DNA of 64,000 nucleotides. Source: an uncultured Thermoleophilia bacterium. GTDB lineage: Bacteria; Actinomycetota; Thermoleophilia; Gaiellales; Gaiellaceae. The DNA lies in assembly GCA_963711785.1 (NCBI GenBank), contig CAVQFF010000008.1, positions 158,672-222,671 on the forward strand, read 5' to 3'. The notes under the pieces were generated by a model. The model was not told the DNA's origin and did not search any database. It saw only the letters and a list, made by a program, of their open reading frames with translations. Positions 5,215 to 26,528 of the stretch are shown in pieces. Made by a program: the position numbers and the translations under genes. Each line of letters starts with the position of its first letter. The first letter of the stretch is position 1.

Positions 5215-5339
5215 CCGAACTGTGGCCGAACCAGATTCGCTCTCTGAATCTGATTCGCGAGTTTCTCGGGAGGCAGCCGGCAACTCGAAACTCGTGAACC
5301 TGGTTCGGCTACGCCGAATCAGGTTCAGTGGTTGTGGCC
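5215..5339 (+). repeat. Copy A of a 125-nt three-hairpin intergenic repeat (built from core motif CCGAATCAGRTTC)
   Basis: By manual count 110 of 125 positions are identical, without gaps, to the reverse complement of 27808..27932. It contains three stem-loops: CGAACCAGATTCGC/loop/GAATCTGATTCG, CGAGTTTC/20-nt loop with GGGAGG/GAAACTCG, and GAACCTGGTTCGGC/tac/GCCGAATCAGGTTC. It sits between two convergent stop codons and is visibly lower in G+C than its flanks. Confidence 0.85.
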
Positions 5340-5352
5340 GGCGGCGCCGGCG

Positions 5353-11588: not shown

Positions 11589-12092
11589 TCAAGCGGCGAG
11601 ACTCGGGGCCGGCCGCAGGACGATCGTCTCGGCCGGGGCGTTGGTCAGAAGCCACGCGAGCTCCTTCGCGCTGAAGCCCGAGGCGGGCGCGACGATCCGC
11701 TCGAAGCTCTCGACCTCCCACAGCCGGCGAAGCGCGTGCGTCAGCGAGCGACCCTTCTCGATCCTCGCATCGACCGGCACGCCGGCGCGCAGGGCGGCGA
11801 GCTCGACCGCCTCGAGCAACGGCACTGCCACGGCAACCTGGTCACGCCGGGGAGCCTCTTCCGGATACTGCAACGGGACGACGAGCAGGTACGCGGCGAC
11901 GAGTGTGGACTCCTGGGCTCTGGCGATCCGGATCGCCGCGTTCAGCACCGTCGGCTCGAGCGCGCCCGAGAACGGGACGAGGATGCGGCCCTTGCCCTCG
12001 TAGCGGGCGCGCGGCCGGCGGGCGCGATACGCGAGGGCTGCGACGAGCCCTAGCGCGGCAACGGCCGCGACGGCGATGAGAGCCGGGATCAT
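11589..12092 (-). CDS. Membrane-anchored USP-like protein
   Basis: 167 aa with one N-terminal TM helix (MIPALIAVAAVAALGLVAALAY), then GRILVPFSGALEPTVLNAAIRIARAQESTLVAAYLLVVP, a USP/HUP-type fold. It has a 4-nt overlap with the upstream KdpD-N gene. Confidence 0.55.
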   Translation of the reverse strand: MIPALIAVAAVAALGLVAALAYRARRPRARYEGKGRILVPFSGALEPTVLNAAIRIARAQESTLVAAYLLVVPLQYPEEAPRRDQVAVAVPLLEAVELAALRAGVPVDARIEKGRSLTHALRRLWEVESFERIVAPASGFSAKELAWLLTNAPAETIVLRPAPSLAA

Positions 12093-13174
12093 GAGCGCTC
12101 CTCACGGTCGGCACGATTCGCGATCACGCGAATGTCGATGCCCGGCAACTCGCGCACGAGCGCGGAAACGAGCGAGCCGCGGAAGATCTCCCGCCGCCGG
12201 CTCTCGTTCGGCGTCCCGACGAGCACATAGGTCGAGCCGCGCTCTTCGACGACCCGCTGAACCGTGTCGACGAGGCTGTCACCCTCCTCCTCGAGGAAGT
12301 GCGCACCGAGGACGACGGCCAACCGCCGCAGCGCCGCAAGCTGCACCTGCTCGCCCGGCCTCAGCTCGTGGCCGCGCTGCCGCACCCAGAGCGCGTCGAG
12401 GGGCGCGCCGAGGCGCTCCGCCGAGCGCCAGGCGCGACGGAGGATCCGTTGCGACCTCGGTTCGGGGGTGACGAGCGCGAGCACGCGCTCCGCCACAGCC
12501 TGCGCGCTGAGCGGATCGAGCACGACGGCCTGGCGGCGCGCTCCTACTCCCTCTGCAACCTCGCGCAGCGCGAGCTCCCGCAGCGCCGACAGGCGGTCGG
12601 TCCGGAAGAAGTTGTCGAGCGCGACTCCAGCGCGCTCGGGTGAGTAGACCTTGCCGGCCCGCAGCCGCTCCTGCAGTGCCTCGGGCGTGAGGTCGACCAG
12701 CACGACCTCGTCCGCGCTCTCGAGCACCTGGTCGGGAAACGTCTCTCGTACCCGGACCTCCGTGAGCTCGGCGATCGCGTCGTTCAGGCTCTCGAGGTGC
12801 TGGATGTTGACGGTGGAGATCACGTCGATGCCTGCCGCCAGCACCTCGTCGATGTCCTGCCAGCGCTTCTCGTTGCGCGCGTCCGGCAGGTTCGTGTGCG
12901 CGAGCTCGTCGATCACCGCCAGCTCGGGCGCGCGGCGAATCACCGCGTCGACATCCATCTCCTCCAGCTCCAGGCCGCCGTGGGTCGAGCGCAGCCGCGG
13001 CACGTGCTCGAGCCCCTCCGCCAGAGCGGTGGTCTCGGGGCGGTCGTGGGGCTCGAGGTAGCCGATCACGACGTCGCGCCCGTCCGCATGTGCCGAGCGC
13101 CCCTCCTGCAGCATCCGGTAGGTCTTCCCGACACCCGCCGCCATCCCCAGCAGGATCCGATAGCGGCCACGCAC
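12089..13174 (-). CDS. kdpD: Stand-alone KdpD N-terminal sensor protein (KdpD domain plus USP domain, no kinase)
   Basis: 361 aa. YRILLGMAAGVGKTYRMLQEG is a Walker-A-like motif. VIDELAHTN, DVISTVNIQHLESLND and LQERLRAGKVY are hallmarks of the KdpD N-terminal domain. A USP-like C-terminal half follows. No TM or HisKA/HATPase region is present. Confidence 0.85.
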   Translation of the reverse strand: MRGRYRILLGMAAGVGKTYRMLQEGRSAHADGRDVVIGYLEPHDRPETTALAEGLEHVPRLRSTHGGLELEEMDVDAVIRRAPELAVIDELAHTNLPDARNEKRWQDIDEVLAAGIDVISTVNIQHLESLNDAIAELTEVRVRETFPDQVLESADEVVLVDLTPEALQERLRAGKVYSPERAGVALDNFFRTDRLSALRELALREVAEGVGARRQAVVLDPLSAQAVAERVLALVTPEPRSQRILRRAWRSAERLGAPLDALWVRQRGHELRPGEQVQLAALRRLAVVLGAHFLEEEGDSLVDTVQRVVEERGSTYVLVGTPNESRRREIFRGSLVSALVRELPGIDIRVIANRADREERS

Positions 13175-13185
13175 CGCGGCCGATC

Positions 13186-15229
13186 CTACGCCCCGAAGAC
13201 GCCGGAAACGATCAGGTCGATCAACTTGATCCCGACGAACGGCAGGATCACGCCGCCCAGTCCGTAGATCAGCAGGTTGCGGCGCAGGAGCGCCGTCGCG
13301 CCGATCGCACGGTACTTGACACCCTTGAGAGCCAGCGGGATCAGCGCAGGGATGATCAGGGCGTTGAAGATGATCGCCGAGATGATGGCGCTCTGCGGGC
13401 TGCCCAGCTGCATGATGTTGAGCTTCTGCAGCGGCCCGTGCTCTCCGGGATGCGCGGCATAGGTGAACGCGAACATGGCCGGCAGGATCGCGAAGTACTT
13501 CGCGACGTCGTTGGCGATCGAAAAGGTTGTCAGCGCTCCGCGCGTGATCAGGAGCTGCTTGCCGACCTCGACGATCTCGATCAGCTTCGTCGGGTTCGAG
13601 TCGAGGTCGACCATATTGCCGGCTTCTTTCGCAGCGGACGTGCCGGTGTTCATCGCGACGCCGACATCCGCCTGAGCGAGCGCCGGTGCGTCGTTGGTGC
13701 CGTCGCCGGTCATCGCGACCATGCGTCCCTTCGACTGCTCCTCCTTGATCAGCGCCATCTTGGTCTCGGGGGTCGCCTCTGCAAGGAAGTCGTCGACGCC
13801 CGCTTCCTGCGCGATCACGGCTGCGGTCACACGGTTGTCGCCGGTGATCATCACCGTGCGGATGCCCATGCGGCGAAGCTCGTCGAAGCGCTCGCCCATC
13901 CCGCCCTTGACGATGTCCTTCAGGTGGACGACACCGAGCGCGAAGTTGTCCTTGGCAACGACGAGCGGCGTGCCGCCCTGCTCCGCGACCCCTTGTACGA
14001 TCCGGTCCAGGTCCGCGGGCGCACTGCCACCCTGCTCGGCGATGAATCGCTTGACCGCGTCGCCGGCTCCCTTGCGGATCAGCGTGCCGTTCATGTTCAC
14101 GCCGCTCATGCGCGTCGTGGCGCTGAACGGCACGAACTCGTGCTCCCCGAGGATGCGCTCGCGCAGGCCGAACCGCTCCTTCGCCAGAACGACGATCGAG
14201 CGTCCCTCCGGCGTCTCGTCGGCGAGCGAAGCGAGCTGGGCCACTTCGGCGAGCTCGCGCTCCTCGACGCCTTCGATCGGCAGGAACTCGGCTGCCTGGC
14301 GATTGCCGAGCGTGATCGTGCCGGTCTTGTCGAGCAGCAGCACGTCAACGTCGCCGGAGGCCTCGACCGCGCGTCCCGACATCGCGAGGACGTTGCGCTG
14401 GACGAGCCGGTCCATGCCGGCGATGCCGATCGCAGAGAGAAGCCCACCGATGGTCGTGGGGATCAGCGCCACGAGTAGTGCGATCAACACGGTCTCCGAG
14501 GTCGGCGTGCCGGCGTAGATCGCGAACGGCCGCAGCGTCACGACCGCCGCGAGAAAGGTGATCGTGAGGCCGGCCAGCAGAATGTTGAGCGCGATCTCGT
14601 TCGGGGTCTTGCGCCGTTCGGCGCCCTCCACGAGCGCGATCATGCGGTCCAGGAACGACTTGCCAGGCTCCTGGGTGACCTCGATCACGAGCTGGTCGGA
14701 CAGCAGCTTGGTGCCGCCGGTCACTGCCGAGCGGTCGCCTCCCGCCTCTCGGATCACGGGCGCCGACTCGCCGGTGATCGCCGACTCGTCGACCGAGCCG
14801 ACACCCTCGATGATCTCACCGTCGGCCGGGATGACCTCTCCGGCCTCGACGACGACGACATCGCCGCGCTGCAGCTCCGGCGCCGCGACGCGACCTGCCG
14901 TCGCGCAACCGCGCGTTCGTCGTCGTCCGCGTCGCCCGCAACGCGTCCGCCTGTGCCTTGCCGCGGCCCTCGGCGATCGCCTCGGCGAAGTTCGCGAACA
15001 GGACCGTCAGCCAGAGCCAGATGGCGATCGTGGCGACGAACCCGAGGTTGTCGGTGTTGCCGCGCGCGAGGTTCAAGAAGAAGATCCCCGTCGTGATCAC
15101 GCTGCCGAGCTCGACGATGAACATCACCGGGTTCTTCAGCTGCAGCCGGGGATTGAGCTTCGGGAACGAGTCACGGACTGCCGCGATCGCAAGCTCACTC
15201 GTGAAGATGCTTGACCTCCGGCGCGCCAT
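13186..15229 (-). CDS. kdpB: K+-transporting P-type ATPase subunit KdpB, reading frame broken by one extra nucleotide
   Basis: Track ORFs 14816..15229 (N-terminus: [36 protein letters not shown]) and 13186..14757 together form a full KdpB. Extending the 13186..14757 frame upstream gives [53 protein letters not shown]; DKTGTIT and [12 protein letters not shown] are also present. The total span is 2044 nt (3n+1). The frame switch lies at about 14888..14900. Confidence 0.9.
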
Positions 15230-15819
15230 TACTTTCCGGTCTCCTTGTCGAGAGCGAGGTTCAGTTCGAGCACGTTGACTCCCGCCTCGCCGAACACGCC
15301 CAGCCAGCGGCCGTCGGTGTTCTGCGAGATCAGCTTCTGCACCGTTGCGAGCGGCAGATGCCGGACCGCGGCAATGCGATGTGCCTGGAGCCGCGCGTAG
15401 GCAGGCGAGATGTCCGGATCGATGCCCGATGCGGAGGTGACCACCGCGTCGACCGGGATGTCGTGGATCGTCAGGCCCGGGTTGTAGGGGCCTTCGAGCT
15501 TGAGCACGGCCTTGGCGTTGTCCGAGACGAGCTTGGCCAGCGCCGGGTTCGTCGGGCCGTAGTTCTCGAACGTCGTCCCGGCGGCGTTGTACGCGGGGGA
15601 CGTGGCGGTCGGCCGCTCCATGAAGTACTTGGAGCTCGTGAACCCTTGCGCGGCCAGACGCGACCCGACCGTCACGCCATCGTGCTTGATCAAACTGCCC
15701 TGAGCCTGGCTCGGGAAGGCGACCGACGCGAAGCCGGTCATCACCACCGGGTAGAGAAGCCCGAAGAAGAGCGTCATCACGACCACGGCAACCGCAGAGC
15801 CACCGATCACGCGCATCAT
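15229..15819 (-). CDS. kdpC: K+-transporting ATPase subunit KdpC
   Basis: 196 aa. LLYPVVMTGFASVAFPSQAQGSLI, VTSASGIDPDISPAYARLQAHRIA and VNVLELNLALDK match KdpC. It has 1-nt overlaps with kdpA (TGATG) and kdpB (TAATG). Confidence 0.9.
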   Translation of the reverse strand: MMRVIGGSAVAVVVMTLFFGLLYPVVMTGFASVAFPSQAQGSLIKHDGVTVGSRLAAQGFTSSKYFMERPTATSPAYNAAGTTFENYGPTNPALAKLVSDNAKAVLKLEGPYNPGLTIHDIPVDAVVTSASGIDPDISPAYARLQAHRIAAVRHLPLATVQKLISQNTDGRWLGVFGEAGVNVLELNLALDKETGK

Positions 15820-17531
15820 CAGTGCATCAACCCCTCGACGATCGGGCCGAGCGTGAGGGCGGGAAACACCATCAGGCCGGCCGTGAGCAGGATCATCCCG
15901 ACGAGCAGCACCGAGAAGGTCGGGCCGTCGGTCCTGAATGTGCCGGCCGAGGCAGGCACGGTTCTCTTCGAGGCCAGTGAGCCGGCGAGCGCGAGTGCAG
16001 CGAGCAGCGGCACGAAGCGCCCGAAGAACATGTCGATCGCGCCGAGGTAGGCCGAGAAGCTCGTGGCGCCGTAGCCCGCGAACGCGCTGCCGTTGTTTCC
16101 CGCCTGGGACGTGTACGCGTAGAGCGCCTCGCTGAATCCGTGCGCACCAGGGTTGTAGATGGAAGCCAGCCCCGACTTCGTCACCATCGAGATCGCCGCA
16201 AGGGTGAGGATGAGCACGCCGGGGAACAGCGCGCCGAGCGCAGCGATCTTCACCTCACGAGCCTCGATCTTCTTCCCGAGGTACTCGGGCGTCCGGCCGA
16301 CCATCAGGCCGGCCACGAAGACCGCGAGCACGATGATGAAGATCATCCCGTACAGGCCGGAACCGACGCCGCCGAAGATCACCTCGCCGAGGAAGATGTT
16401 CACGAGTAGGACGCCACCGCCGGCCGGTGTCATCGCGTCATGCCCGGCGATCACGGCGCCGGTCGACGTCATCGTCGTGCCGGTGGCGAAGACCGCGGTC
16501 TCGGCGAGCCCGTACCGGACCTCCTTGTCGGCCATGTTGCCGCCCGTCTGCCCGTTCCCCTGCGTGATGTTCACGCCCGAGGACCGCAGCACGGCGGAGC
16601 CGTGCTGCTCGGCGACGTAGTTGATCCCGACTCCGGTCGCGAACAGGACGAACATGGCCGCGAAGATCGCGAGCGCATTGCGCATCGAGCGGATCAAGCG
16701 ACCGAACATGAACAGGATCCCGAACGGGATCAGCAGCTCCAGAAAGAGCTCGAAATAGCCGCCGAAACTGCTGGGGCTCTCGAAGGGAACGGCCGAGTTC
16801 GAGTTGTAGAAGCCGCCGCCGTTCGTCCCAACGTGCTTGATCGCGATCTGCGAGGCGACCGGGCCGCGAGCGATCGTTTGATGGCCGCCCTGAAGCGTGG
16901 TCACCCGGGCATAACTGTGGAACGTCTGCGGAACACCGACCGAGATCAGGATCACGGCGCCGACGATCGCGAGCGGCAGCAGGATGTAGACGAGCGAGCG
17001 GTAGAGATCGCGCCAGAAGTTGCCGAGGTTCTTGGAGGAGCGCCGCGTGAAGCCGCGGATGGCTGCGATCAGCACCGCCATCCCGACTGCGGCCGACACG
17101 AAGTTCTGCACGGCCAGCGCGCCCATCTGCGACAGGAAGGACATCGTCGACTCGCCCGCGTAGTACTGCCAGTTGGTGTTCGTCAGGAAGCTCACGGACG
17201 TGTTCAGCGAGATGTGTGACGGCACGCCCTTGAAATGCTCCGGGTTGAGGAACAGGTGCCCCTGGAGTCGCAGGATGGCGTAGACCAGGAGGACGAAGAA
17301 GAAGCTGAAGACGAGCACGGTGAGGCCGTACTGCTGCCAGGTCTGCTCGCGCTCCGCGCGATCGCCGACGAGCCGATAGAAGCCGCGCTCGATGCTGCCG
17401 AGGAAGCGCAGCCGACCCCGCCGCAGGAAGTTGTCGTCCTCGTAGACGCGCGCCATGTACAGGCCCATCGGATAGGCGGCCGCGATCAGGATCACGACGA
17501 AGAGGACGATCTGGAAGACGCCCTGACCCAT
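15819..17531 (-). CDS. kdpA: K+-transporting ATPase subunit KdpA
   Basis: The start is taken at ATG 17531 (MGQGVFQIVLFVVILIAAAYPMGLYMARVY), giving 570 aa. TNTNWQYYAGESTMSFLSQM and GTNGGGFYNSNSAVPFE are selectivity-filter-like motifs. The 617-aa track ORF carries a spurious Arg-rich extension. Confidence 0.9.
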   Translation of the reverse strand: MGQGVFQIVLFVVILIAAAYPMGLYMARVYEDDNFLRRGRLRFLGSIERGFYRLVGDRAEREQTWQQYGLTVLVFSFFFVLLVYAILRLQGHLFLNPEHFKGVPSHISLNTSVSFLTNTNWQYYAGESTMSFLSQMGALAVQNFVSAAVGMAVLIAAIRGFTRRSSKNLGNFWRDLYRSLVYILLPLAIVGAVILISVGVPQTFHSYARVTTLQGGHQTIARGPVASQIAIKHVGTNGGGFYNSNSAVPFESPSSFGGYFELFLELLIPFGILFMFGRLIRSMRNALAIFAAMFVLFATGVGINYVAEQHGSAVLRSSGVNITQGNGQTGGNMADKEVRYGLAETAVFATGTTMTSTGAVIAGHDAMTPAGGGVLLVNIFLGEVIFGGVGSGLYGMIFIIVLAVFVAGLMVGRTPEYLGKKIEAREVKIAALGALFPGVLILTLAAISMVTKSGLASIYNPGAHGFSEALYAYTSQAGNNGSAFAGYGATSFSAYLGAIDMFFGRFVPLLAALALAGSLASKRTVPASAGTFRTDGPTFSVLLVGMILLTAGLMVFPALTLGPIVEGLMH

Positions 17532-17620
17532 CAGAACCGCTCCCCGCGGAACAGCGCATAGACGAGGTACACGAAGACGGCGAGTGAGGCGACGAGCCCG
17601 AAGATGTCGGCAGCCGACAT
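17531..17620 (-). CDS. kdpF: KdpF (29 aa)
   Basis: MSAADIFGLVASLAVFVYLVYALFRGERF is a single TM helix with the LVYAL motif, as in E. coli KdpF. It has 1-nt overlaps with both neighbours. Confidence 0.7.
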   Translation of the reverse strand: MSAADIFGLVASLAVFVYLVYALFRGERF

Positions 17621-17703
17621 CAGACGCGGCCCAACGCCCAGAGGAGCGCGAACGCGCCTGCGAACGACACAACGATCACGGCGAGAGCGGCCAGGTCGTA
17701 CAT
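17620..17703 (-). CDS. Candidate 27-aa hydrophobic peptide immediately upstream of kdpF
   Basis: Not in the track. ATG 17703..17701 through TGA 17622..17620 reads MYDLAALAVIVVSFAGAFALLWALGRV. 24 of 27 third codon positions are G or C. TGATG overlaps link it to the 136-aa ORF upstream and to kdpF downstream. Confidence 0.4.
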   Translation of the reverse strand: MYDLAALAVIVVSFAGAFALLWALGRV

Positions 17704-18113
17704 CAGTGAGAGACCCCCAACTTGGTGAGGACGGCGCGAAGCTCCGGTTCGACGTCGTCGACATCGGTGAACAGGCAGCTCGCCGGGCTCGTCAAGAGCT
17801 CGTTGACGGCGAGCATCCCGAGCGCGGAGACAGGCGATTCGTCGAGCAGACGCGCCACGAGCTGTTCGAGCAAAGCCCTGTGTGGGCGAAGCTGACTGGT
17901 ACGGAGCGGTGCTGCTCCCGGCAGCTTTGTCCCGTCGAGCTCACCGAGGACGCCGCGCAGCGAGCGCGCACAGAGCTTGCGCTCGCGCTCTGTCGTCAGC
18001 TCGTCGACGCGCCATTGAAAACGGCTGTCGAAACCATGCCGAATCCAGTAGTCGGCCTCCGCCCTGGCGCGACGGCGTTCGAGCCAGGCGCGCGGATGAG
18101 CAATCGTTGCCAC
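17703..18113 (-). CDS. Hypothetical 136-aa protein at the head of the kdpFACB transcription unit
   Basis: GTG start with reasonable composition and GC3, and no family I recognise. It is coupled by a 1-nt overlap to the downstream peptide. The alternative + strand ORF 17604..18212 is Arg-rich shadow sequence. Confidence 0.5.
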   Translation of the reverse strand: MATIAHPRAWLERRRARAEADYWIRHGFDSRFQWRVDELTTERERKLCARSLRGVLGELDGTKLPGAAPLRTSQLRPHRALLEQLVARLLDESPVSALGMLAVNELLTSPASCLFTDVDDVEPELRAVLTKLGVSH

Positions 18114-18181
18114 AACCCGGACGGTAGGACGCGCCGTGTCAATGCAGCCTCAAGCGTGCGGGGCTCGGCCTTAAAGCTTCC

Positions 18182-18868
18182 TCAAGATTCGTTCGGATCG
18201 ACCAGCCGGTAGCCGGCTCCCGGCTCGGTGAGCACGTACCGCGGACGAGAGGGATCGGGCTCGATCTTGGCCCGTAGATGCGACACGTACACGTGCAGGT
18301 AGTGCGCCTCGACCTGGTAGGCCGGGCCCCAAACCTCGCGCAGCAACATCCGGTGTGTGAGCAGCTTGCCGCGGTTCTGCGCGAGGAAGCGCAGGAGGTC
18401 GAACTCGTGCGGGGTCAGCCGGATGCGCTCGCCGTTTCGCGTCACGAGCCGCTCGGGGACGTCGATCCGCAGCTCGCCCACTTCGATCACGGGCCCGGGC
18501 TCTGGTGCCGACCGTCGGAGCACGGCCCGCAGGCGCGCGAGCAACTCGTCGACGCTGAAGGGCTTGGTCACGTAGTCGTCCGCCCCCGCATCGAGCGCCG
18601 CGATCTTCTCGCGCTCCTCCCCCACCGCGGAGAGAACGATCACCGGCGCCTCGGTCCACGTGCGCAGCTCGCGGCACACGTCGGTGCCGCTGCCGTCCGG
18701 GAGCACGAGATCGAGGATCACCGCTGCCGGTGGATGAGCAGCCGCCGCCGCGAGCGCCCCCTCGGCCGTGTCCGCGGTCTCGACCTCGAAGCCCGCACCG
18801 CGCAGCGTCGTGCCGAGCGCACGCAGGATCTGCGGCTCGTCGTCGACGACCAGGATCCGCTGTTTCAC
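18182..18868 (-). CDS. kdpE: Response regulator KdpE (OmpR family)
   Basis: ILVVDDEPQILRAL...DLVLPDGSG...DDYVTKPF is a receiver domain. LTPHEFDLLRFLAQNRGKLLTHRMLLREVWGP...YLHVYVSHLRAKIE is a winged helix. It has a 4-nt overlap with the kinase gene. Confidence 0.9.
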   Translation of the reverse strand: MKQRILVVDDEPQILRALGTTLRGAGFEVETADTAEGALAAAAAHPPAAVILDLVLPDGSGTDVCRELRTWTEAPVIVLSAVGEEREKIAALDAGADDYVTKPFSVDELLARLRAVLRRSAPEPGPVIEVGELRIDVPERLVTRNGERIRLTPHEFDLLRFLAQNRGKLLTHRMLLREVWGPAYQVEAHYLHVYVSHLRAKIEPDPSRPRYVLTEPGAGYRLVDPNES

Positions 18869-20259
18869 GCGGGCAGCTCCGCCGTCACCTCGACGACGGG
18901 GAGAGCGAGCGCGAACGTCGCGCCCTGGCCGGGCTTCGACTCGGCCCAGACACGGCCCCCATTTGCGGCGGCGAAACCGCGCGCGATCGCAAGCCCCAGC
19001 CCGGCACCGGAGCGCTGGTCGCCGTCCCTGCGATAGAACGGTTCGAAGACGCGCTCGAGCTCGTTCGAGTCGAGCCCCGGCCCCTGGTCGACGATCCGGA
19101 CGATCGCCTCCTGCCTGGTCGCGGTGATGCGCACGTGAACGCGAGCGGTCGGCGGCGAGAACTTCAGCGCGTTCTCGACGAGGTTCGCGAGCACGCGCTG
19201 GATCTGGATCGGGTCGACGTTCACAAGCGGGCCTTCGCCGGCAATGTCGATCCGATCGCTGCCGGGCAGGTCGTCGACGGCTTCCCGGACCAGGTCGTCG
19301 AGTGCCCAGACCTCGGCCTCGGGCTCTGCGCCGCCGGCCTCGAGCCTCGAGAGGTCGAGCAGATCCCCGACCAGGCGTCCGAGCCGCTCGGCGTCCACGG
19401 CGATCGTGTCCAGCAGCACTCGGCGGTCGTCGTCGCTGAAGACGAGCGTCTCGCTGCGAAGCGCGCCGATCGCCGTCGTGATCCCCGTGAGGGGCGAGCG
19501 CAGGTCGTGCGAGACCGCCCGCAGCAGCGCCGTCTTCACGAGGTCGCTGCGCCGCAGCGCCTCGGCCTCGAGCGCCTCCTGCTCGAGACGGCTGCGGTCG
19601 AACGCGACGGCGAGCAACGCCGCGAGCGCCGGCAGGAACCGGTGGCGCACGCCGAGATCGGGGTCGGCGTCGGCCGGGACGTAAAGCGTGCCGACGGGTC
19701 GACCGTCGACCTCGAGCGGGATCGGGGCATCCGTTGCATGGCGCCGCCGCGTGCCGAGCTCGATCTCGGCGCGCGAGATGCCGAGCACGCCCGCCGCCTG
19801 CATCCCCACCCAGCCGAGCTCGGTGTCCAGGGGCCGACCGCCGAGCAAATGCCCGGCAATCTCGGCGAGGAGGGACGACTCTCGCTCGCGCTGCTCGGCA
19901 TCCGCCGCCCTCCGCCGCGACCTGCTCGCCAACTCACTGACGACGAGCGCTGTCACCGAATACACGGCCAGCGCGAACCAGTTGGCCGAGTCCCTCAGCG
20001 TCAGAGTGTGCGTGGGCGGCAGGAAGAAGAAGTTGAAGGCGAGCATGCTCGCGACCGCGACCGGCAATGACCAGTACGTGCCCCAGACGATCGCCACGGG
20101 CAGCACCGCAAAGACGTAGAGAACGCCGAGGCTGAGCGTCGGCGCGAACGGCTGGAGCGCCCAGACGAGCAGCGTGGTTACGGTCACGGCGGCGACGGAG
20201 CCCGCGAGCTTCACGACCATGCGGGAGACGGTACTCCGTCGGGCTGTCGACCGGCTCAC
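18865..20259 (-). CDS. kdpD: KdpD-type histidine kinase core (DUF4118 membrane domain, GAF-like linker, HisKA, HATPase) lacking the N-terminal KdpD/USP domains
   Basis: 464 aa. It has four TM helices (GVLYVFAVLPVAIVWG...FNFFFLPP), the H-box LLRAVSHDLRSPLTGI, the N-box LANLVENALKFSP and G-boxes DQGPGL and GAGLGLAIARG. Confidence 0.85.
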   Translation of the reverse strand: MSRSTARRSTVSRMVVKLAGSVAAVTVTTLLVWALQPFAPTLSLGVLYVFAVLPVAIVWGTYWSLPVAVASMLAFNFFFLPPTHTLTLRDSANWFALAVYSVTALVVSELASRSRRRAADAEQRERESSLLAEIAGHLLGGRPLDTELGWVGMQAAGVLGISRAEIELGTRRRHATDAPIPLEVDGRPVGTLYVPADADPDLGVRHRFLPALAALLAVAFDRSRLEQEALEAEALRRSDLVKTALLRAVSHDLRSPLTGITTAIGALRSETLVFSDDDRRVLLDTIAVDAERLGRLVGDLLDLSRLEAGGAEPEAEVWALDDLVREAVDDLPGSDRIDIAGEGPLVNVDPIQIQRVLANLVENALKFSPPTARVHVRITATRQEAIVRIVDQGPGLDSNELERVFEPFYRRDGDQRSGAGLGLAIARGFAAANGGRVWAESKPGQGATFALALPVVEVTAELPA

Positions 20260-20262
20260 GCG

Positions 20263-21582
20263 CTAAGCGCCGAACAACCCGCCGAGCGTGACCAGGAGCA
20301 GCAGCACCGAGAGCGTGGACGTGGCGAGCACGGTGCCTCCCGCAAGCACGTTGAACGTCCGGGTGTTGGCATAGCTGCCCATCAGCTCCCGGTTCGAGGC
20401 CAGCTTCCAGATGAAGAAGAGCGTGATCGGCAGCAGCGCTCCGTTGACGATCTGGACGAAGACCAGCAGCGAGATGACCGGCAGACCGGGGATCAGTGCA
20501 ACTGCCGTGCCGATCACGATCAGGACGGTGATCACTCCGACGAAAACGGGGGCTTCCCGTGGCCTCCGCGAGATCCCCTTCTCGTATCCGAACGTCTCCG
20601 CGACGACGTATGCGGCGGTGACCGGCAGGATCGCGGCCGCGAGCAGGCTCGCGCCGAGCAGGCCGACGGCGAAGAGGATCTCCGCGTAGCGGCCGGCGAA
20701 CGGAGCGAGCGCCTTCGCGGCGTCGGCGGCGCTTCCGATCGTGTGATCACCGTGGACGTAGAGGGTGGCACCGGTGGCGATGATGATGAACATCGCGACC
20801 ACGTTTGCGAAGATCGACCCGGTCACGACCTCGGCCCGTTCGGCGCCGAGATCCTCCGGGCCGATGCCGCGCTCGACGACCGCAGACTGGAGGTAGAGCT
20901 GCATGAACGGTGTGATCGTCGTTCCTGCGGTCGCGACGAACAGCAGCAGGTACGCGGAGCTCATCTGGACGTGCGGAACGACGATCGCCTTGCCGACATG
21001 GCCCCAGTGCGGACGGGCGAGGATCGCAGCGATGGGATAGGCGAAGAACGGCAAGGTCATCAGGACGAAGATCCGCTCAGCGCCCCGGTACGACCCGCGT
21101 ACGAGCAGCAGCCACACGAGCAGCGCTGCGACCGGGATCGAGAGGTACTTCGGGATATGCGCGAGGCTGAGGGCGGCCCCGATACCGACGAACTCACTGA
21201 TGCAGATGCCCAGGTTCGCGACCAGCACCGAGAGCGTGGCGAACGCCGACCAGCGGATCCCGTAATGCTCGCGGATCAGCTCTGCCAGCCCCTTGCCGGT
21301 GACCGCCCCCATCCGGGCGGCCATCTCCTGGACGACGATCAGCGACACCGTGATCACGACCATCATCCAGAGCAGGTCGTAGCCGAACTTCGCGCCGACG
21401 GATGCATAGGTGGCGACCCCGCCTGCGTCGTTACCGGCGTTCGCGGCGATCAGGCCGGGGCCGAGAAACGCGAACAGCGGAAGCAGGCGCCGGGAGGTGC
21501 GGCTACGCGGACGAAGCCGCGGCCGTGCCCAGAGCGCGCGCTCGCGCAGGCGCCCGATGACAGCGCGGACTCGGCGCGTCAT
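20263..21582 (-). CDS. NRAMP/SLC11-like transporter with a non-canonical metal-binding site (NRMT-like)
   Basis: 439 aa with an NRAMP-like fold signature GPGLIAANAGNDAGGVATYASVGAKFGYDLLW. DAGG replaces DPGN, and the TM6 region TAGTTITPFMQLYLQS replaces A-x-x-M-P-H-N. Confidence 0.8.
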   Translation of the reverse strand: MTRRVRAVIGRLRERALWARPRLRPRSRTSRRLLPLFAFLGPGLIAANAGNDAGGVATYASVGAKFGYDLLWMMVVITVSLIVVQEMAARMGAVTGKGLAELIREHYGIRWSAFATLSVLVANLGICISEFVGIGAALSLAHIPKYLSIPVAALLVWLLLVRGSYRGAERIFVLMTLPFFAYPIAAILARPHWGHVGKAIVVPHVQMSSAYLLLFVATAGTTITPFMQLYLQSAVVERGIGPEDLGAERAEVVTGSIFANVVAMFIIIATGATLYVHGDHTIGSAADAAKALAPFAGRYAEILFAVGLLGASLLAAAILPVTAAYVVAETFGYEKGISRRPREAPVFVGVITVLIVIGTAVALIPGLPVISLLVFVQIVNGALLPITLFFIWKLASNRELMGSYANTRTFNVLAGGTVLATSTLSVLLLLVTLGGLFGA

Positions 21583-21650
21583 CGACTTCGAGTGCTAGGA
21601 GCAGGGCTTCCACGGCCGCGGCATTCTACGCCACTGCCGGGCTCGACCGT

Positions 21651-22922
21651 TCAGTCGTCACCGAACAGGTGGAAGTGGCGACGCCAACCCTGTGGGAGGA
21701 CGAGCTCGAGCACGTCGTCGACGGTGATCACGCCCATCACGCGGTCCTCGTCGTCGACCACGGGAACGACGCTGAGGTCGTAGTCGGTCATCAGACGAGC
21801 GACCTCCTCGAGCTCGGCGCCGGCCTTGACGCTCTTCGCTGCAATTGCCGCCTCGCCGACCGGAATCGCATCGTCGGCCCGCAGCAGGTCGGCGAGCGCG
21901 ATCGCGCCGTCGAGCCGTTTGTGCGCGTTCATCAGGAAGATCCAGGCGAGTGAATCGGCCGAGCACGACGAGCGCATCACGCGGTCGATCGCCTCGGCCT
22001 TCGTCGCCGTGCGATAGAGACAGACGAAGTCGGGCGACATCAAGCCTCCGGCCGTGGCCGGGTCGTAGCCCATCAGCGCCCGGATCCGCCGCAGCTGCAC
22101 GGGCGGCAGGAGTCGCACGACGTCCTCCCGCCGCTCCTCCGGGAGCGCGGCGAGCAGGTCGGTGGCGTCGTCGGTCTCCATATGGGCAAGGACATCCGCG
22201 ATCTCCTCGTCGCTCTTGTCCTCGATGAACTCGACCTGGTGCTGGAGGTTCAGCTCCTCGAACACATCGGCCTGCAACGCCGGGTTCTCGCCGACGGCGT
22301 CGATGATCTCTTCGCCCTCGTGATGGGATGCAGCCTCGACCAGGTCGGCGAGCTCCGCCGGATGAAGCCGCGCCAGCTTCGGATGCGGAATGCGCAGCCG
22401 AACGGTGGGGACGTGGCCCGTGAACGGCTCGACGCTCGCCCAGTCCAGGAACTCGCCGGGGCGGATCTTGCCGGAGAGCGCCCTGGGCACGAGCCTCCGT
22501 GCGATCCCGCGCATACGCACATCGACCCCGACCACGCGGTACCAGCCCTCGAGCCGGGTGATCTCGATCTCGTTCGCCCGCACGAGACGCGCGCCGTCGA
22601 TGTTGATCAACTGACGGTCGAGCACATCTTTTTTCAGCAGCACCTCCTGCGAGCGGCGCTCGAACGGCTGCAGGTCGAGGTGCGCGACCGTGAGGGTTGC
22701 GCGGCCATGCTCGATCTCCACGGCCGCGTCGGCCGGAACGAACACCTGCCGCCCCGCGACGGTCGCCAGGATGCCGCTGACCGGCGGATACTCGTCGTCG
22801 CCGAGGCGGACGATCAGGTCGTCCACGCGACCGAGCTTCCGTCCCGTCCCGTCGATCAGATCCGAGCCGACGATCAGCGACAGGTGCAGCACGCGGGGGA
22901 TCACAGCGGCGGAAACGTCCAT
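21651..22922 (-). CDS. Soluble PRC-barrel / MgtE N-terminal / tandem CBS domain protein (MgtE cytoplasmic module without a pore)
   Basis: 423 aa. GRKLGRVDDLIV...SGILATVAGRQVFVP is PRC-like. LHPAELADLVEA...DDATDLLAALPEERREDVVRLLP is MgtE_N. MSPDFVCLY...VVPVVDDEDRVMGVITVDDVLE is a CBS pair. No TM segments are present. Confidence 0.85.
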   Translation of the reverse strand: MDVSAAVIPRVLHLSLIVGSDLIDGTGRKLGRVDDLIVRLGDDEYPPVSGILATVAGRQVFVPADAAVEIEHGRATLTVAHLDLQPFERRSQEVLLKKDVLDRQLINIDGARLVRANEIEITRLEGWYRVVGVDVRMRGIARRLVPRALSGKIRPGEFLDWASVEPFTGHVPTVRLRIPHPKLARLHPAELADLVEAASHHEGEEIIDAVGENPALQADVFEELNLQHQVEFIEDKSDEEIADVLAHMETDDATDLLAALPEERREDVVRLLPPVQLRRIRALMGYDPATAGGLMSPDFVCLYRTATKAEAIDRVMRSSCSADSLAWIFLMNAHKRLDGAIALADLLRADDAIPVGEAAIAAKSVKAGAELEEVARLMTDYDLSVVPVVDDEDRVMGVITVDDVLELVLPQGWRRHFHLFGDD

Positions 22923-22938
22923 GCGGGAAGGATAGAGC

Positions 22939-22967
22939 GCTGCGCGGGGGCCGATCCCCCGCGCAGC
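22939..22967 (-). terminator. GC-rich hairpin downstream of hppA (possible intrinsic terminator or attenuator)
   Basis: GCTGCGCGGGGG / ccgat / CCCCCGCGCAGC forms a 12-bp perfect stem 12 nt after the hppA stop. On the transcribed strand it is followed by GCTCTATCCTTCCC, with no clean U-tract. Confidence 0.45.
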
Positions 22968-22978
22968 GTCGAGTCGTT

Positions 22979-25018
22979 TCAGCCGTGGATCGAGATGAGC
23001 AGCGGAATGATCAGGATCGCGACGATGTTCGTGATCTTGATCATCGGGTTGATCGCCGGGCCCGCTGTGTCCTTGTACGGATCGCCGACGGTGTCGCCGG
23101 TGACGGAGGCCGCGTGCGCCTCAGAGCCCTTGCCGCCGTAGGCACCGTCCTCGATCGACTTCTTCGCGTTGTCCCAGGCGCCACCGCCGGAGGTCATCGC
23201 AATCGCCAGGAAGAGGCCGGTGACGATCGTGCCGATCAGAAGGCCGCCGAGCATCTTGACGCTGATGATCCCGACCACGATCGGGAACCCGATCGGGATC
23301 AGCGCCGGCGCGAGCATCGACTTGATCGCCGACCCGGTGACGATGCTGACCGCGCGGCTGTAGTCGGGCTTCTCCGTGTAGTCCATGATCCCGGGGTGCT
23401 CGCGGAACTGCCGCCGCACCTCCTGCACGACCAGCCCTCCCACGCGTCCGACCGCCTGCATGGCAAGCGACGCGAAGAGGAACGGCATCAGGCCGCCGAG
23501 GAAGAGACCCGAGATCACCCAGGGGTCGGAGAGGGTGAAGATCGTCGGGAGCCCCTGGTCGGTGAGCCCAGTCGTGTACGAGTCGAACAGGATCAGCGCG
23601 GCCAGTGCGGCCGAGCCGATCGCGTAGCCCTTGGTCACGGCCTTGGTCGTGTTCCCGACGGCGTCGAGCGGGTCGGTGATCGCACGAACCCCCTCGGGGA
23701 GGTCTGCCATCTCAGCGATCCCGCCGGCGTTGTCGGTGACCGGGCCGTACGCGTCGAGCGCGACGATGAGACCGGTCATCGAGAGCTGCGCCATCACGGC
23801 GACGCCGATGCCGAACAGGCCGGCGAAGTGATGGGCCACGAGAATGCCGGCAACGAGCACGATCACAGGAGCAGCCGTGGCCTGCATGCCGATCGCGAGA
23901 CCTTCGATGATGTTCGTCGCATGTCCGGTCTGCGATGCCTTGGCGATCGCCTTGACCGGGTTCCAGCGCGTGCCGGTGTAGTACTCGGTGATGGCGACGA
24001 GCAGGAACGTGACGACGAGGCCGACGATCGCCGACAGGTACAGGTCGGTGAAGCCGTACCTGCCCGTGTCGAAGCCCATCGTGACCGGGATGAAGCCGAG
24101 GGCCGACAGGATCGTCGCGGCCAGCACCGCCTTGTAGAGCGCGTTGATGACCGCGTTGTCACCCTTGCCGAGCCGCGCGAAGAACGTGCCGAGCACGGAT
24201 GCGACCGCGGAGACGCCGCCGAGCGCGAGCGGGTAGAGATAGAGCTTCGCGTCCGGGAAGTGCGTGCCGAGGAGCATCACGGCAACGGCCGTCACGGCGT
24301 ACGTCTCGAACAGGTCGGCGGCCATGCCGGCGCAGTCGCCGACGTTGTCGCCGACGTTGTCGGCGATCACGGCCGCGTTCCGCGGATCGTCCTCGGGGAT
24401 CCCGGCCTCGAGCTTGCCGACGAGGTCGGCGCCGACGTCGGCGGCCTTCGTGAAGATGCCGCCGCCGAGCCGTGCGAACACGGAGATCAGCGAACCGCCG
24501 AATGCGAGCCCGACGAGGTCGTGAATCGCGGAGGTCGGTGAGTTGTTCAGCGCTGCGGTCAGGAACCAGTAGTACCCGGAGACGCCGGCGAGCCCCAGCC
24601 CGACGACGAGCAGTCCGGTCACGGAGCCTGCGCGGAAGGCAACATTCAGCGCCGGGGCGAGCCCGTTGCGGGCGGCCTCGGCCGTGCGGGCGTTCGACCG
24701 CACGGCCACGTTCATGCCGATGAAGCCGGCGGCCGCCGAGAGCACGGCGCCGATGAGGAAACCGAAGGCGGTGCCCCAGCCGAGCTTGTCGTAGACGCCG
24801 AGCAGGATGAACGGCGCGATCGCGACGATCGCGATCGTCCTGTACTGCTTCTTCAGATACGCCGCGGCGCCCTCCTGGACGGCTGCGGAGATCTCCCGCA
24901 TCCGCTCGTTCCCGGCCGGCTGCTTGAGCAGCCACCAGATCAGGTACAGCCCGTACGCCACGGCCACGCCGGCACCGACGAGGCCGACGAGCACGGCGTG
25001 ATGCATGAACCAATCCAT
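22979..25018 (-). CDS. hppA: Membrane-bound H+-translocating pyrophosphatase, K+-independent type
   Basis: 679 aa with typical H+-PPase motifs ([39 protein letters not shown]). The [10 protein letters not shown] motif has Lys and Thr where K+-dependent enzymes have Ala and Gly. Confidence 0.95.
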
Positions 25019-25043
25019 CCGTTTCGCTCCCTCACAAAGTCAA

Positions 25044-25063
25044 GCGCCGAAGGGCTTCGGCGC
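25044..25063 (-). terminator. Hairpin with a T-rich tail between the DUF1844-like gene and hppA
   Basis: GCGCCGAAG-gg-CTTCGGCGC. On the minus strand it is followed by TTGACTTTGTG, then the hppA SD GAGGGAG. Confidence 0.5.
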
Positions 25064-25096
25064 GGGCGATTATGTATCACAAGCTCCGGGGGGAGC

Positions 25097-25366
25097 CTAA
25101 GGGTTGACGGCCTCCGAGTAGGCCACCTGCAGGCGCGCCAGGGCCAGTGCCAGGTCGTCGGCCAGCTCGCCCTCGAGCTGCGGAACGAGGGCCGCAAGGG
25201 CGTCGATCGCCTTGCGCGCCTCCGGGAAGTCCCTCCGCTCCAGCTTGGCGTAGGCCAGGCTCGCGATCGTCGAGGCGGCGGAGACGAGGAATTGCTCGAC
25301 GCTGAACGAGGCCAGCTGTTCCTGCAGGGCCTCGACGTCGATCTCTTCGTCTGGCTCGTCAGCCAT
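25097..25366 (-). CDS. Small acidic protein, DUF1844-like (89 aa)
   Basis: The start is taken at ATG 25366 (MADEPDEEIDVEAL...), which overlaps the upstream stop by 8 nt. FLVSAASTIASLAYAKL...ARKAIDALAALVPQLEG...ALARLQVAY resembles DUF1844, from memory. Confidence 0.55.
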   Translation of the reverse strand: MADEPDEEIDVEALQEQLASFSVEQFLVSAASTIASLAYAKLERRDFPEARKAIDALAALVPQLEGELADDLALALARLQVAYSEAVNP

Positions 25367-26528
25367 CGGATCTCGACCCGGCCGGCTCTCCCACCCGCAC
25401 CTGCTCGGAATAGATCTCCTCCAGCGAGGCGCCCTCGTCGAACCGGGCGATCTGGCGCTCGGCGGCATTCCGAGCAGGCAGGTTCAGGAAGGCCGCCGCG
25501 CCGATCTCACTCGCGACCGGCGCCACCCAGTCGAGCAGCTGTTCGATTCTCGCTCGCGCGTGCACCTGCTCACCACGATCGAAGTCGAGCAGCTCGCCGG
25601 ACAGGCCGTACCGGATCGCCCGCCACATGTTCTCCTCCAGCAGGCGGTTCGGCAGGCTCGGCAACGCCTCTCCCTCGTCGATTGCGCGGGCACACCGGAC
25701 AGCCAGGCTGTAGCAGAACGCTGCGAGCGACTGCGCCTCCGCGAGATCCGGCTGGCCGTCCGCGATGCGGATCTCGATCGTGGGATACGCCAGGTGCGGC
25801 CGAACGCTCCACCAGATCTGCGTGTGCTCCGTGATCGAGCCGGTGCGATAGAGAAACGCGACGTAGTCCTCCCAGCCGCGCCAGTCGCCATAGGCGTCCG
25901 GGATGCCGCAGCGCGGGAACATGCGGGTGAAGACCTCGGTGCGCGCCGAGTGCAAGCCGGAGTTCACCGATTCGACGAACGGCGAGCTCGCCGAGAGCGC
26001 GAGCACCTCGGGCAGGAAGTTGCGCAGCGCGTCGTGTACCGCGATCGCGCGGTCCGCTCCGGCGATCCCCACGTGCACGTGTAGGCCGAAGGTGTTGTTG
26101 CGCCACACGACGTAGCGAAGCAGCTCGTCGTTTCGACGGTAATGCGGCGTGTCGATGATGCGCTGGTCCTGCCAGCGGCTCCACGGATGCGTCCCGGTGC
26201 CGCCGAGCGCAAGCTGCAGCTCGCGCGCAACGCCGTGGATCTGCGTGCGCCGTTCCTGCATGGCAGCCGCAGCCTCGCCGAAGCTCTCGCACCGGCCGGT
26301 TCGCACCTCGACCTCGGAGGCGATCAGCTCGCCGACGACGTTGGGTGCGAGCTCGGTCTCCTGCGCCGCGGCATAGATCTCCTCGAAGCGATCGGTGAGC
26401 GCCAGCGTCTGCGAATCGAGCAGGGCGAACTCCTCCTCGACGGCCAGCGTGAAGTCGGTGCCGGCCTCGAAGTCGTCGCGGCTCTGCGCGATCAACTCTT
26501 GCCAGGAGACGCGTTGCTCGTCGCCCAT
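25359..26528 (-). CDS. Carboxylate-amine ligase, YbdK / glutamate-cysteine ligase family 2
   Basis: 389 aa. TLAVEEEFALLD, ELIASEVEVRTG, GTGTHPWSRW, FGLHVHVG and IWWSVRPHLAYPTIEIRIADGQ are GCS2 hallmarks. Confidence 0.85.
   Translation of the reverse strand: MGDEQRVSWQELIAQSRDDFEAGTDFTLAVEEEFALLDSQTLALTDRFEEIYAAAQETELAPNVVGELIASEVEVRTGRCESFGEAAAAMQERRTQIHGVARELQLALGGTGTHPWSRWQDQRIIDTPHYRRNDELLRYVVWRNNTFGLHVHVGIAGADRAIAVHDALRNFLPEVLALSASSPFVESVNSGLHSARTEVFTRMFPRCGIPDAYGDWRGWEDYVAFLYRTGSITEHTQIWWSVRPHLAYPTIEIRIADGQPDLAEAQSLAAFCYSLAVRCARAIDEGEALPSLPNRLLEENMWRAIRYGLSGELLDFDRGEQVHARARIEQLLDWVAPVASEIGAAAFLNLPARNAAERQIARFDEGASLEEIYSEQVRVGEPAGSRSDG

Follow-up and report, generated by a model that had tools for sequence, protein, structure and literature searches.

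The window, that is, the whole stretch of 64,000 nucleotides analysed here, carries two open reading frames on the minus strand, encoding proteins of 439 and 423 amino acids. The gene for the shorter protein, the partner, lies directly upstream of the transporter gene on the same strand. The coordinates, the arrangement of the reading frames and the 68-nt gap agree with the first-pass annotation of this DNA (Table 1). Scans with promoter and terminator consensus sequences yielded sites no more frequent than in shuffled sequence. In a search for evidence of co-transcription, parts of the locus were found in soil DNA metagenomes only, with no RNA runs among the matches.

Table 1. Positions of the two genes and of their domains and motifs in the window.
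Feature	Position	Strand	Basis
NRMT-type (NRAMP-related Mg2+ transporter) gene, 439 aa	20263..21582	-	Pfam Nramp; match to EleNRMT 7QIA; NRMT clade of the NJ tree
TM6 metal-site motif T221-T-I-T224-P-F226 (TxxA/T of NRMTs; AxxMPH in MntH)	20905..20922	-	aligned to EleNRMT T224/A227/W229 and DraNramp A227/M230/H232
TM1 metal-site motif D52-A-G-G55 (DxxG of NRMTs; DPGN in MntH)	21418..21429	-	aligned to EleNRMT D55/G58 and DraNramp D56/N59
Spacer between the partner and NRMT genes, 68 nt	21583..21650	-	ORF coordinates; no Rfam match
Partner gene, 423 aa, soluble PRC-PRC-MgtE_N-CBS-CBS protein without pore domain	21651..22922	-	Pfam; PDB sequence matches; fold match to 2YVY; adjacency to NRMT
C-terminal tail, L409-P-x-x-W413-R, at the place of the MgtE plug helix	21654..21698	-	alignment with MgtE of T. 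thermophilus stops at residue 254; low pLDDT
CBS pair, residues 292-408	21699..22049	-	Pfam CBS; pLDDT about 90; residue mapping to MgtE
MgtE_N helical domain, residues 186-288	22059..22367	-	Pfam MgtE_N, 1e-20; residue mapping to MgtE
PRC barrel 2, residues about 90-150	22473..22655	-	AF2 beta-barrel; alignment to double-PRC CdpB1/CdpB2
PRC barrel 1, residues about 10-80	22683..22895	-	Pfam PRC, 25.1 bits on the segment alone; pLDDT 80-90; fold matches

The transporter belongs to the Nramp family (Pfam, E 4e-90). Its best solved relative is EleNRMT (7QIA), with E 1e-110, 373.6 bits and 49% identity over 408 residues, whereas the Mn2+ transporter MntH gives E 1e-27, DraNramp 99.7 bits and the NRAT structure 8ONT 49.6 bits. 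The replacement of DPGN by DAGG and of AxxMPH by TTITPF, noted in the first pass, is borne out by the alignment to EleNRMT and DraNramp. The Asp of the TM1 motif is present in all 79 relatives and the Gly in 77 of them. Out of the five residues defining the Slc11 site (D-x-x-N and A-x-x-M-x-H), only the Asp is unchanged, while both parts of the published NRMT signature, DxxG-TxxA/T (Ramanadane et al. 2022, eLife, PMC8806188), are present. The proton pathway is lost as well: E124, D131, H232, H237, R352 and R353 of DraNramp correspond to L120, C127, F226, Q232, G349 and T352, respectively. The replacements are of the kind seen in EleNRMT, and, in keeping with the pattern described for NRMTs, the two TM6b His and the acidic and basic residues of TM3 and TM9 are gone and the TM3 Glu is retained (E130). 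The transporter stays below the cut-offs of the NCBIfam models NF001923 (MntH; 150 bits, cut-off 430) and TIGR01197 (77.8 bits, cut-off 272.5). In a neighbor-joining tree, albeit a small one with one outgroup and no bootstrap, the transporter falls into the NRMT clade beside EleNRMT, separated from DraNramp by a long branch. By homology, the assignment of the transporter to the NRMT class, made in the first pass, is fully supported, together with the signature and the loss of the proton pathway.

The properties of EleNRMT bear on what the protein may carry. EleNRMT, purified, reconstituted and assayed alone, transports Mg2+ and Mn2+, but not Ca2+, without H+ coupling (PMC8806188), and its T224A substitution abolishes the transport of Mg2+ but not of Mn2+. 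Uncoupled Mg2+ transport by NRMTs has been demonstrated for EleNRMT and the Clostridium acetobutylicum proteins only. Since EleNRMT carries Mn2+ too, the substrates of the window transporter could, by analogy, include Mn2+ besides Mg2+.

The partner yields Pfam matches to PRC (23.3 bits, cut-off 21.2), MgtE_N (E 1e-20) and CBS (E 4e-15), and none to the MgtE membrane domain PF01769, as the protein stops 15 residues past the CBS pair. Ten diverse full-length homologues likewise have no PF01769 domain. Hence the partner has neither the five-helix pore nor the selectivity Asp (D432) of the MgtE channels; its MgtE_N domain and CBS pair, homologous to the MgtE cytoplasmic region and free of a membrane domain, are those of an NrmT partner. 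Its sequence matches in the PDB are MgtE cytosolic domains only, and its N domain and CBS pair are homologous to those of Thermus thermophilus MgtE (E 6.5e-28). In the AlphaFold model the C-terminal 230 or so residues superpose on 2YVY, the cytosolic domain of MgtE (TM 0.78 on the target, E 6e-20), the arrangement of the domains relative to each other being uncertain (pTM 0.48). The pore-less protein with PRC, MgtE_N and CBS domains reported in the first pass is therefore confirmed.

The Mg2+ sites of MgtE, as defined by Maruyama 2018, can be mapped onto this half of the partner. D219, D251 and D255 occupy the positions of E59 (Mg7), D91 (Mg4) and D95 (Mg6), and D382, D403 and E406 those of D226 (Mg5), D247 (Mg4) and D250 (Mg5). 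Among 55 homologues, position 219 is Asp or Glu in all, D251 is Asp in 53, D255 and D403 are kept in all, and E406 in 51. Judging by the alignment, sites Mg4–Mg7 retain their acidic ligands in the window protein and, for the most part, in the 55 homologues. It is plausible that an MgtE-type sensor is supplied in trans to the NRMT, and these residues fit the idea. Two points speak against the sensor model. Firstly, the equivalent of Asp226 in Mg5 (D382) is Asp in the Gaiellaceae group only and Asn in the other 44 of the 55 homologues. Secondly, the plug-helix sites Mg2 and Mg3, the link between sensing and the pore in MgtE, are missing: the alignment to T. thermophilus MgtE shows no equivalents of their ligands E258 and D259. 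At that place the partner has a short tail, with L409, P410 and W413 invariant in 79 homologues.

The N-terminal 180 residues of the partner form two PRC barrels in the AF2 fold. The first has fold matches to the reaction-centre H subunit, MTH1859 and RimM. For the second, Pfam produced no match on residues 85–180 even at E 10, and the PRC assignment comes from structure prediction and fold search; at that, it is the best-conserved part of the N-terminal half, with the motif LDLxPFxRRxxEVLLxxDVLDxQLI. The best fold matches of the whole head are CdpB1/CdpB2 (8QZO; E 2e-5, 152–167 columns), followed by the reaction-centre H subunits (62–65 residues, 2.4–2.9 Å rmsd). The head is present in every partner examined, and among full-length proteins it occurs only ahead of a pore-less MgtE_N and CBS region, in proteins of 405–460 amino acids. 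We found no mention of the tandem PRC-barrel head in the literature searched.

The PRC barrel of the reaction-centre H subunit makes protein–protein contacts at a membrane complex, and the PRC barrels of CdpB1 and CdpB2 are such contact modules in the archaeal division ring. We tentatively suggest that the head might be a docking module by which an MgtE-type Mg2+ sensor, probably a dimer, is anchored on the cytoplasmic side of a monomeric NRMT, yielding a uniporter gated in trans. The same sensor chassis would then regulate two unrelated membrane folds, acting in cis on the MgtE pore and in trans on a LeuT-fold carrier. Where an M-box is lacking, as in this Gaiellaceae genome, uptake would be under no other Mg2+ feedback. 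Another candidate docking site, the basic N-terminal tail of the transporter, was rejected: its net charge is about +9 in transporters with the partner and about +7 in those without it, which does not discriminate between them.

Of 80 related loci from the Actinomycetota, Acidobacteriota and Chloroflexota, 65 have the partner gene adjoining the NRMT gene, on the same strand, so that the conserved adjacency proposed as a check in the first pass holds across three phyla and chance adjacency is ruled out. A 12-member group of NRMTs from the Acidobacteriota has no adjacent partner; of the informative loci outside this subclade, 65 of 67 have the partner. Spacers in 61 related loci have a median of 68 nt, the same as in the window. 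In Paraeggerthella, a PRC, MgtE_N and CBS gene lies 4 nt upstream of a relative of EleNRMT with 90% identity. The family is abundant, with at least 575 genome matches and thousands of metagenomic proteins, from soil Actinomycetota, Acidobacteriota and Chloroflexota. A functional tie to the neighbouring H+-PPase and kdp (kdpDE) genes was also considered and dismissed; their arrangement is kept in the closest relatives only (L010 and partly L001), and hence the conserved unit is the pair alone.

No M-box (RF00380) or other riboswitch was found in the window at the Rfam gathering score, nor in positions 20000–25600 at E≤1, and the spacers of 56 and 68 nt are too short for the 169-position M-box model. 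Riboswitch control of this pair is thus rejected, and the pair is not an M-box-controlled uptake operon. The weak Rfam matches near it are spurious miRNA and FinP hits. An M-box precedes the pair in a Ktedonobacterales genome (L079), the sole case among the loci scanned, as ten other loci and that of Paraeggerthella showed none. The Ktedonobacterales M-box ties the unit to Mg2+.

The first-pass annotation implied that the pairing was new. This does not hold, since Shin et al. 2014 (PLoS Genet, PMC4072509) described both the pairing and the same hypothesis: most NrmT genes were found to have an adjacent gene for an MgtE cytoplasmic domain, and feedback regulation by this MgtE-like protein was proposed, with chaperone activity as an alternative. 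With the pair described in 2014 and the binding-site signature defined in 2022, the window locus is a further member of a known system, another, ordinary copy of the gene pair, here lacking an M-box and carried by a soil actinobacterium of the Gaiellaceae. The C. acetobutylicum transporters, expressed on their own with no partner gene, restored growth (PMC4072509), hence the partner is not required for transport. The NrmT of A. capsulatum behaved mainly as an Mn2+ importer, with full rescue of an Mn2+-uptake mutant and partial rescue of an Mg2+ mutant. In the only published test of the partner, co-expression of the A. capsulatum pair, it added nothing to the Mg2+ rescue (PMC4072509). This null result could reflect a feedback inhibitor, which is not expected to aid rescue at low Mg2+. 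In the literature searched, we found no paper following up the role of the partner since 2014.

On balance, we consider it likely that the two genes form one NrmT/NRMT-type unit. The enlarged, Met-less site of the transporter would accept largely hydrated Mg2+, and probably Mn2+ too. As the proton-relay residues are gone, import should be uncoupled from H+ and would proceed down the membrane potential, as for EleNRMT. The partner would be cytosolic and resemble the regulatory half of MgtE in its build, with the Mg2+-binding acidic residues kept at the domain interfaces. It would bind the transporter, most likely via the PRC barrels, the conserved C-terminal tail or both, sense Mg2+ and inhibit the transporter, providing post-translational feedback on an otherwise uncoupled uniporter. 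The division into an uncoupled NRMT importer and an MgtE-like feedback regulator, where we infer the interaction, the Mg2+ sensing and the inhibition, seems to us the probable description of the pair. In the window genome, no Mg2+-responsive control other than the partner would be apparent from the sequence.

Three alternatives have to be weighed. The best of them, which we nevertheless consider unlikely, is a manganese or general divalent-cation system, in which the transporter serves mainly for Mn2+ import and the partner responds to Mn2+ or to some other signal, e.g. ATP, instead of Mg2+. It agrees with the rescue pattern of A. capsulatum NrmT, which has the partner and, like the window pair, no M-box, and with the transport of Mn2+ by EleNRMT; moreover, MgtE cytosolic domains bind ATP too (5X9G and 5X9H are among the fold matches of the partner). 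However, at the window site the soft Met ligand is missing and the Thr on which EleNRMT depends for Mg2+ in particular is present, the conserved residues of the partner are those of the MgtE Mg2+ sites, and other lineages place the same gene pair under M-box control.

Somewhat less likely still is a partner that does not gate the transporter but chaperones or buffers metal, supports assembly or stability, or acts as a sensor on another target, and is merely co-expressed with the transporter. The chaperone alternative of Shin et al., the activity of transporters alone in heterologous hosts, the assays of EleNRMT alone and the general role of PRC barrels as protein–protein adaptors, e.g. in CdpB1/B2, are in line with such a role. 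It sits badly with an adjacency that is almost obligate in three phyla and leaves short spacers or none, with an architecture that copies the regulatory part of a gated channel for Mg2+ down to the interface ligands, and with the fact that no other conserved neighbour could be the target, H+-PPase and kdpDE being present in the closest relatives only.

Finally, an ordinary MntH-type H+/Mn2+–Fe2+ symporter beside an unrelated CBS protein is very improbable: NCBIfam matches only generic Nramp/MntH models, with Nramp_1 above its cut-off at 68.9 bits, and close EleNRMT relatives go by "MntH" or "Mn transporter" in public sources, but the sequence evidence contradicts it, as the MntH model stays far below its cut-off, the site residues other than the Asp are changed, the proton relay is missing, the similarity to EleNRMT far exceeds that to any MntH, and the adjacency of the partner is conserved.

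We thus retain the feedback-regulated NRMT unit as the preferred reading. The importance of the window locus itself is mainly for annotation: automated pipelines would report a generic Nramp/MntH Mn2+ transporter and a "CBS domain-containing protein", and the evidence points instead to an NRMT-type uptake unit for Mg2+ (and Mn2+). The question of gating concerns the NRMT–partner family as a whole rather than this locus. If an MgtE-type sensor does gate an NRAMP-fold carrier, one regulatory module would be common to unrelated transport architectures, and this would explain how cells with an uncoupled Mg2+ uniporter escape overload.

Among the known systems, the NrmT operons of Shin et al. (C. 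acetobutylicum Ca_c0685/Ca_c3329 and A. capsulatum Acp2976–Acp2977) are the same two-gene unit, with the MgtE-like gene immediately upstream. Many of them are M-box controlled; the window pair is not, and hence it resembles the A. capsulatum case. Further, their authors call the partner a small MgtE fragment and give no description of the tandem PRC-barrel head of about 180 residues that the window partner has.

EleNRMT (Eggerthella lenta; 7QIA, 7QIC, 7QJI, 7QJJ) shares with the window transporter the D-x-x-G / T-x-x-(A/T) site, the TM3 Glu and the TM10 Gln, and the loss of the TM3, TM6b and TM9 proton-relay residues. The Met position is Thr (T224) in the window and Ala in EleNRMT, the published signature admitting either residue, and the first TM6b His is replaced by Phe and Trp, respectively. 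The hosts are different, a soil member of the Gaiellaceae and a gut member of the Coriobacteriia. The EleNRMT structure paper (PMC8806188) makes no mention of a partner protein.

The archaeal cell-division proteins CdpB1/CdpB2 (8QZO, 8ONW) and the reaction-centre H subunit have a fold like that of partner residues 1–150. However, the identity is 12–24%, there is no functional relation, and the head of the partner is fused to an MgtE-type sensor.

The MgtE channel (T. thermophilus; 2YVX/2ZY9, cytosolic 2YVY) has an N domain and a CBS pair homologous to those of the partner. Unlike MgtE, with its five-helix pore, plug helix and Mg1–Mg3 sites, the partner has none of these and is soluble, and it carries two additional N-terminal PRC barrels. 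Any membrane target of the partner would be a LeuT-fold carrier unrelated to the MgtE pore and encoded by a separate gene.

The transporter and partner genes lie on the minus strand exactly where the first-pass annotation placed them (see the table), and the DAGG and TTITPF motifs that it quoted are correct. Pfam assigns the transporter to Nramp over its full length (E 4e-90). Its helix 1 reads LGPGLIAANAGN-DAGG, with DPGN at the same place in Mn2+ transporters, and helix 6 reads GTTITPF, compared to AxxMPH. The site signatures of Ramanadane et al. 2022 (PMC8806188) are DxxN with A/CxxM in classical SLC11 proteins, DxxN-AxxT in NRAT and DxxG-TxxA/T in NRMT, the NRAMP-related Mg2+ transporters. 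Since both D52xxG55 and T221xxT224 are present, the window transporter has the NRMT signature, in its Thr variant at the Met position. T221 is the conserved counterpart of Thr224 of EleNRMT, the Eggerthella lenta member, where this residue is required for Mg2+ transport and dispensable for Mn2+ transport. The helix-3 Glu (E130) and helix-10 Gln (Q377) are also retained. The proton carriers of the Mn2+ transporter DraNramp (E124, D131, H232, H237, R352, R353) are replaced by L120, C127, F226, Q232, G349 and T352; EleNRMT, experimentally devoid of H+ coupling, shows the same kind of replacement.

Among all PDB sequences the closest is EleNRMT (7QIA; E 1e-110, 374 bits, residues 25–433; 49% identity over 408 residues), far ahead of DraNramp (1e-27) and the plant Al3+ transporter NRAT (3e-12). 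In the neighbour-joining tree of 79 relatives, EleNRMT and DraNramp, the transporter groups with Gaiellaceae sequences on the same side as EleNRMT, with DraNramp across a long branch, in agreement with the NRMT placement suggested at first pass. The curated MntH model yields 150 bits at a cut-off of 430 and only the generic Nramp model passes, thus routine annotation would hide the specificity. Moreover, the NCBIfam search with the window transporter returned no NRMT-specific model, hence it would receive only a generic Nramp name. Close EleNRMT relatives appear in public sources (P0393–P0454) as 'MntH', 'Mn transporter' or 'Nramp family divalent metal transporter'. The transporter is thus very probably an NRMT-type Mg2+ carrier without coupling, and it probably takes Mn2+ as well.

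Features of the window at and around the transporter–partner pair
Feature	Position	Strand	Remarks
Cobalamin riboswitch (RF00174)	541-703	-	97 bits; unrelated to the pair
kdp cluster	12089-20259	-	downstream of transporter
KdpD sensor-domain gene	12089-13174	-	separate, after KdpB
KdpB	13186-14757 and 14816-15229	-	split in two ORFs
KdpC	15229-15819	-
KdpA	15819-17672	-
ORF, no assignment	17703-18113	-	136 aa, between KdpE and KdpA
KdpE	18182-18868	-	after kinase-core KdpD
KdpD, kinase core only	18865-20259	-	DUF4118+HisKA+HATPase; starts 3 nt past NRMT stop
Transporter (NRMT)	20263-21582	-	439 aa
Partner	21651-22922	-	423 aa, 68 nt from transporter
Codon of partner D382	21777-21779	-	Mg5 position
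Stem-loop	22937-22970	-	~13 bp, GC-rich
H+-pyrophosphatase (hppA)	22979-25018	-	Pfam E 3.5e-256; directly upstream of pair

The first-pass annotation described the partner as PRC, MgtE_N and CBS domains without a pore. Pfam finds all three (PRC 23.3 bits at a cut-off of 21.2, MgtE_N E 1e-20, CBS E 4e-15) and yields no match to the MgtE membrane domain. Residues 183–410 match the cytosolic region of MgtE from Thermus thermophilus (E 6.5e-28). The AlphaFold model, built from 79 homologues, has a mean pLDDT of 73, rising to 84–94 across the MgtE_N and CBS parts, and fits onto 2YVY, the cytosolic domain of MgtE with Mg2+ bound (Foldseek E 6e-20, TM 0.78 on target). As the protein ends 15 residues past the CBS pair, it lacks both the plug helix and the pore.

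Maruyama et al. 2018 assigned the MgtE sites to E258 (Mg2), D259 (Mg3), D91/D247 (Mg4), D226/D250 (Mg5), D95 (Mg6) and E59 (Mg7). The window partner has an acidic residue at every such position inside the N and CBS domains. Over 55 full-length partners, the counterparts of E59 (D219, D or E), D95 (D255) and D247 (D403) are conserved in all 55, that of D91 (D251) in 53 and that of D250 (E406, Glu) in 51. The counterpart of D226, D382, is Asp in 11/55, all Gaiellaceae-type sequences, and Asn in the other 44. Since the double mutant D226N/D250A has been used experimentally to disable Mg5 in MgtE, the partner lineages may differ in Mg2+ affinity or cooperativity. The counterparts of the Mg2 and Mg3 ligands, which reside on the plug helix in MgtE, are absent; the partner ends instead in a short tail whose L409, P410 and W413 are invariant.

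The N-terminal 180 residues are integral to the partner and conserved: in all partner-bearing loci examined, contig-truncated copies excepted, tblastn shows them fused in frame to the MgtE-like portion. The Pfam PRC barrel covers only residues 12–79, and residues 85–180 have no Pfam match. A separate model of residues 1–182 (pTM 0.74) matches the double-PRC-barrel proteins CdpB1/CdpB2 over 152–167 columns (E 2e-5), followed by the single barrels of reaction-centre H subunits, MTH1859 and RimM; by this modelled fold, the head is two PRC barrels. When 1.84 billion cluster representatives were searched with only this region (E <= 1e-3), 1636 clusters matched, the full-length ones having 405–460 aa and the region at the N-terminus. 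Ten diverse examples were scanned: nine have MgtE_N and CBS and one CBS alone, five also have PRC, and all lack a pore domain. No mention of a PRC barrel together with MgtE was found in the literature searched.

Scanning a single genome for each species gave at least 575 relatives of the transporter, and the best 80 loci were analysed, from Gaiellaceae, Solirubrobacterales, Ilumatobacteraceae, Acidobacteriota (mostly Pyrinomonadaceae) and Chloroflexota. The adjacency expected at first pass is conserved: tblastn and the family HMM place the partner inside the fetched flanks in 65 of these 80, nearly always directly upstream on the same strand (median spacer 68 nt), and directly downstream in two Chloroflexota loci. 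Twelve of the 15 partner-less loci form one Acidobacteriota subclade (L035, L042, L046, L047, L049, L051, L053, L054, L057, L072, L077, L078; two contig-truncated upstream) whose motifs differ slightly, being DASG or DAGG and TTITPF or TTIAPF. These may be paralogues working without a partner or with one encoded elsewhere. Among informative loci outside this subclade, 65/67 have the partner. The crystallised EleNRMT has a relative in Paraeggerthella, at 90% identity, and there too a PRC+MgtE_N+CBS gene (450 aa) lies 4 nt upstream. Such near-obligate adjacency strongly suggests a role as dedicated cytosolic subunit for the partner; its PRC barrels and its conserved tail would be the natural candidates for contact with the carrier.

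Other neighbours are not conserved, the upstream H+-pyrophosphatase and downstream kdpDE-like genes recurring in the closest relatives only. The hppA product carries GNTTKA, the motif that marks the K+-independent type; its substrate is Mg-pyrophosphate. As this neighbourhood is kept only in the closest relatives (L010), no functional link with the pair is supported. The kdp cluster is unusual, with the order A-C-B and a split KdpD; the apparent frameshift in kdpB may be an assembly error. The 56 nt between the hppA stop (22979) and the partner ATG (22922) are taken up by a strong stem-loop that lacks a U-tract (dG -47 kcal/mol, z -4.4), leaving no space for a separate promoter. It is kept in L010 (4665–4710), the sole relative with the same hppA–partner arrangement, with sequence changes that preserve pairing. 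It may act as an actinobacterial terminator of the factor-independent kind, in processing or stability, or as an attenuator.

The window contains no M-box riboswitch, and the spacers at the pair are too short for one. In a Ktedonobacterales MAG (L079) an M-box (RF00380, 118 bits; 2488–2678, plus strand) precedes the pair, whose gene order is the reverse of that in the window (NRMT 3065–4426, partner 4446–5918); this independently ties the unit to Mg2+, as do the published Firmicutes cases. The pair may instead serve Mn2+: in Shin et al. 2014 (PMC4072509) the M-box-less pair of A. capsulatum gave full Mn2+ rescue and only partial Mg2+ rescue. Two C. acetobutylicum genes of the NrmT group, a group identified through M-boxes, gave Mg2+ rescue. 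The same authors reported a neighbouring gene for an MgtE cytoplasmic domain in most of the group and speculated that it provides cytoplasmic feedback regulation or chaperone activity; co-expression of the A. capsulatum partner did not improve rescue. A non-gating role of the partner is an alternative. Ligand conservation suggests that the partner may sense Mg2+ as MgtE does. Given the MgtE precedent, and as an importer that is uncoupled and driven by the membrane potential calls for a brake, it would inhibit transport at high Mg2+. A negative regulator is not expected to improve rescue at low Mg2+, therefore the co-expression result is not contradictory.

The later SLC11 papers found, including that on the EleNRMT structure (PMC8806188), do not discuss the partner, and its tandem PRC-barrel head is undescribed in the literature searched. 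The value of the window pair lies in correct annotation and in drawing attention to this protein. The first-pass observation and its hypothesis of a sensor acting in trans are sound but not new, both having been published by Shin et al. 2014. Thus the pair is a real, correctly read and routine soil Gaiellaceae example of a known two-gene system.
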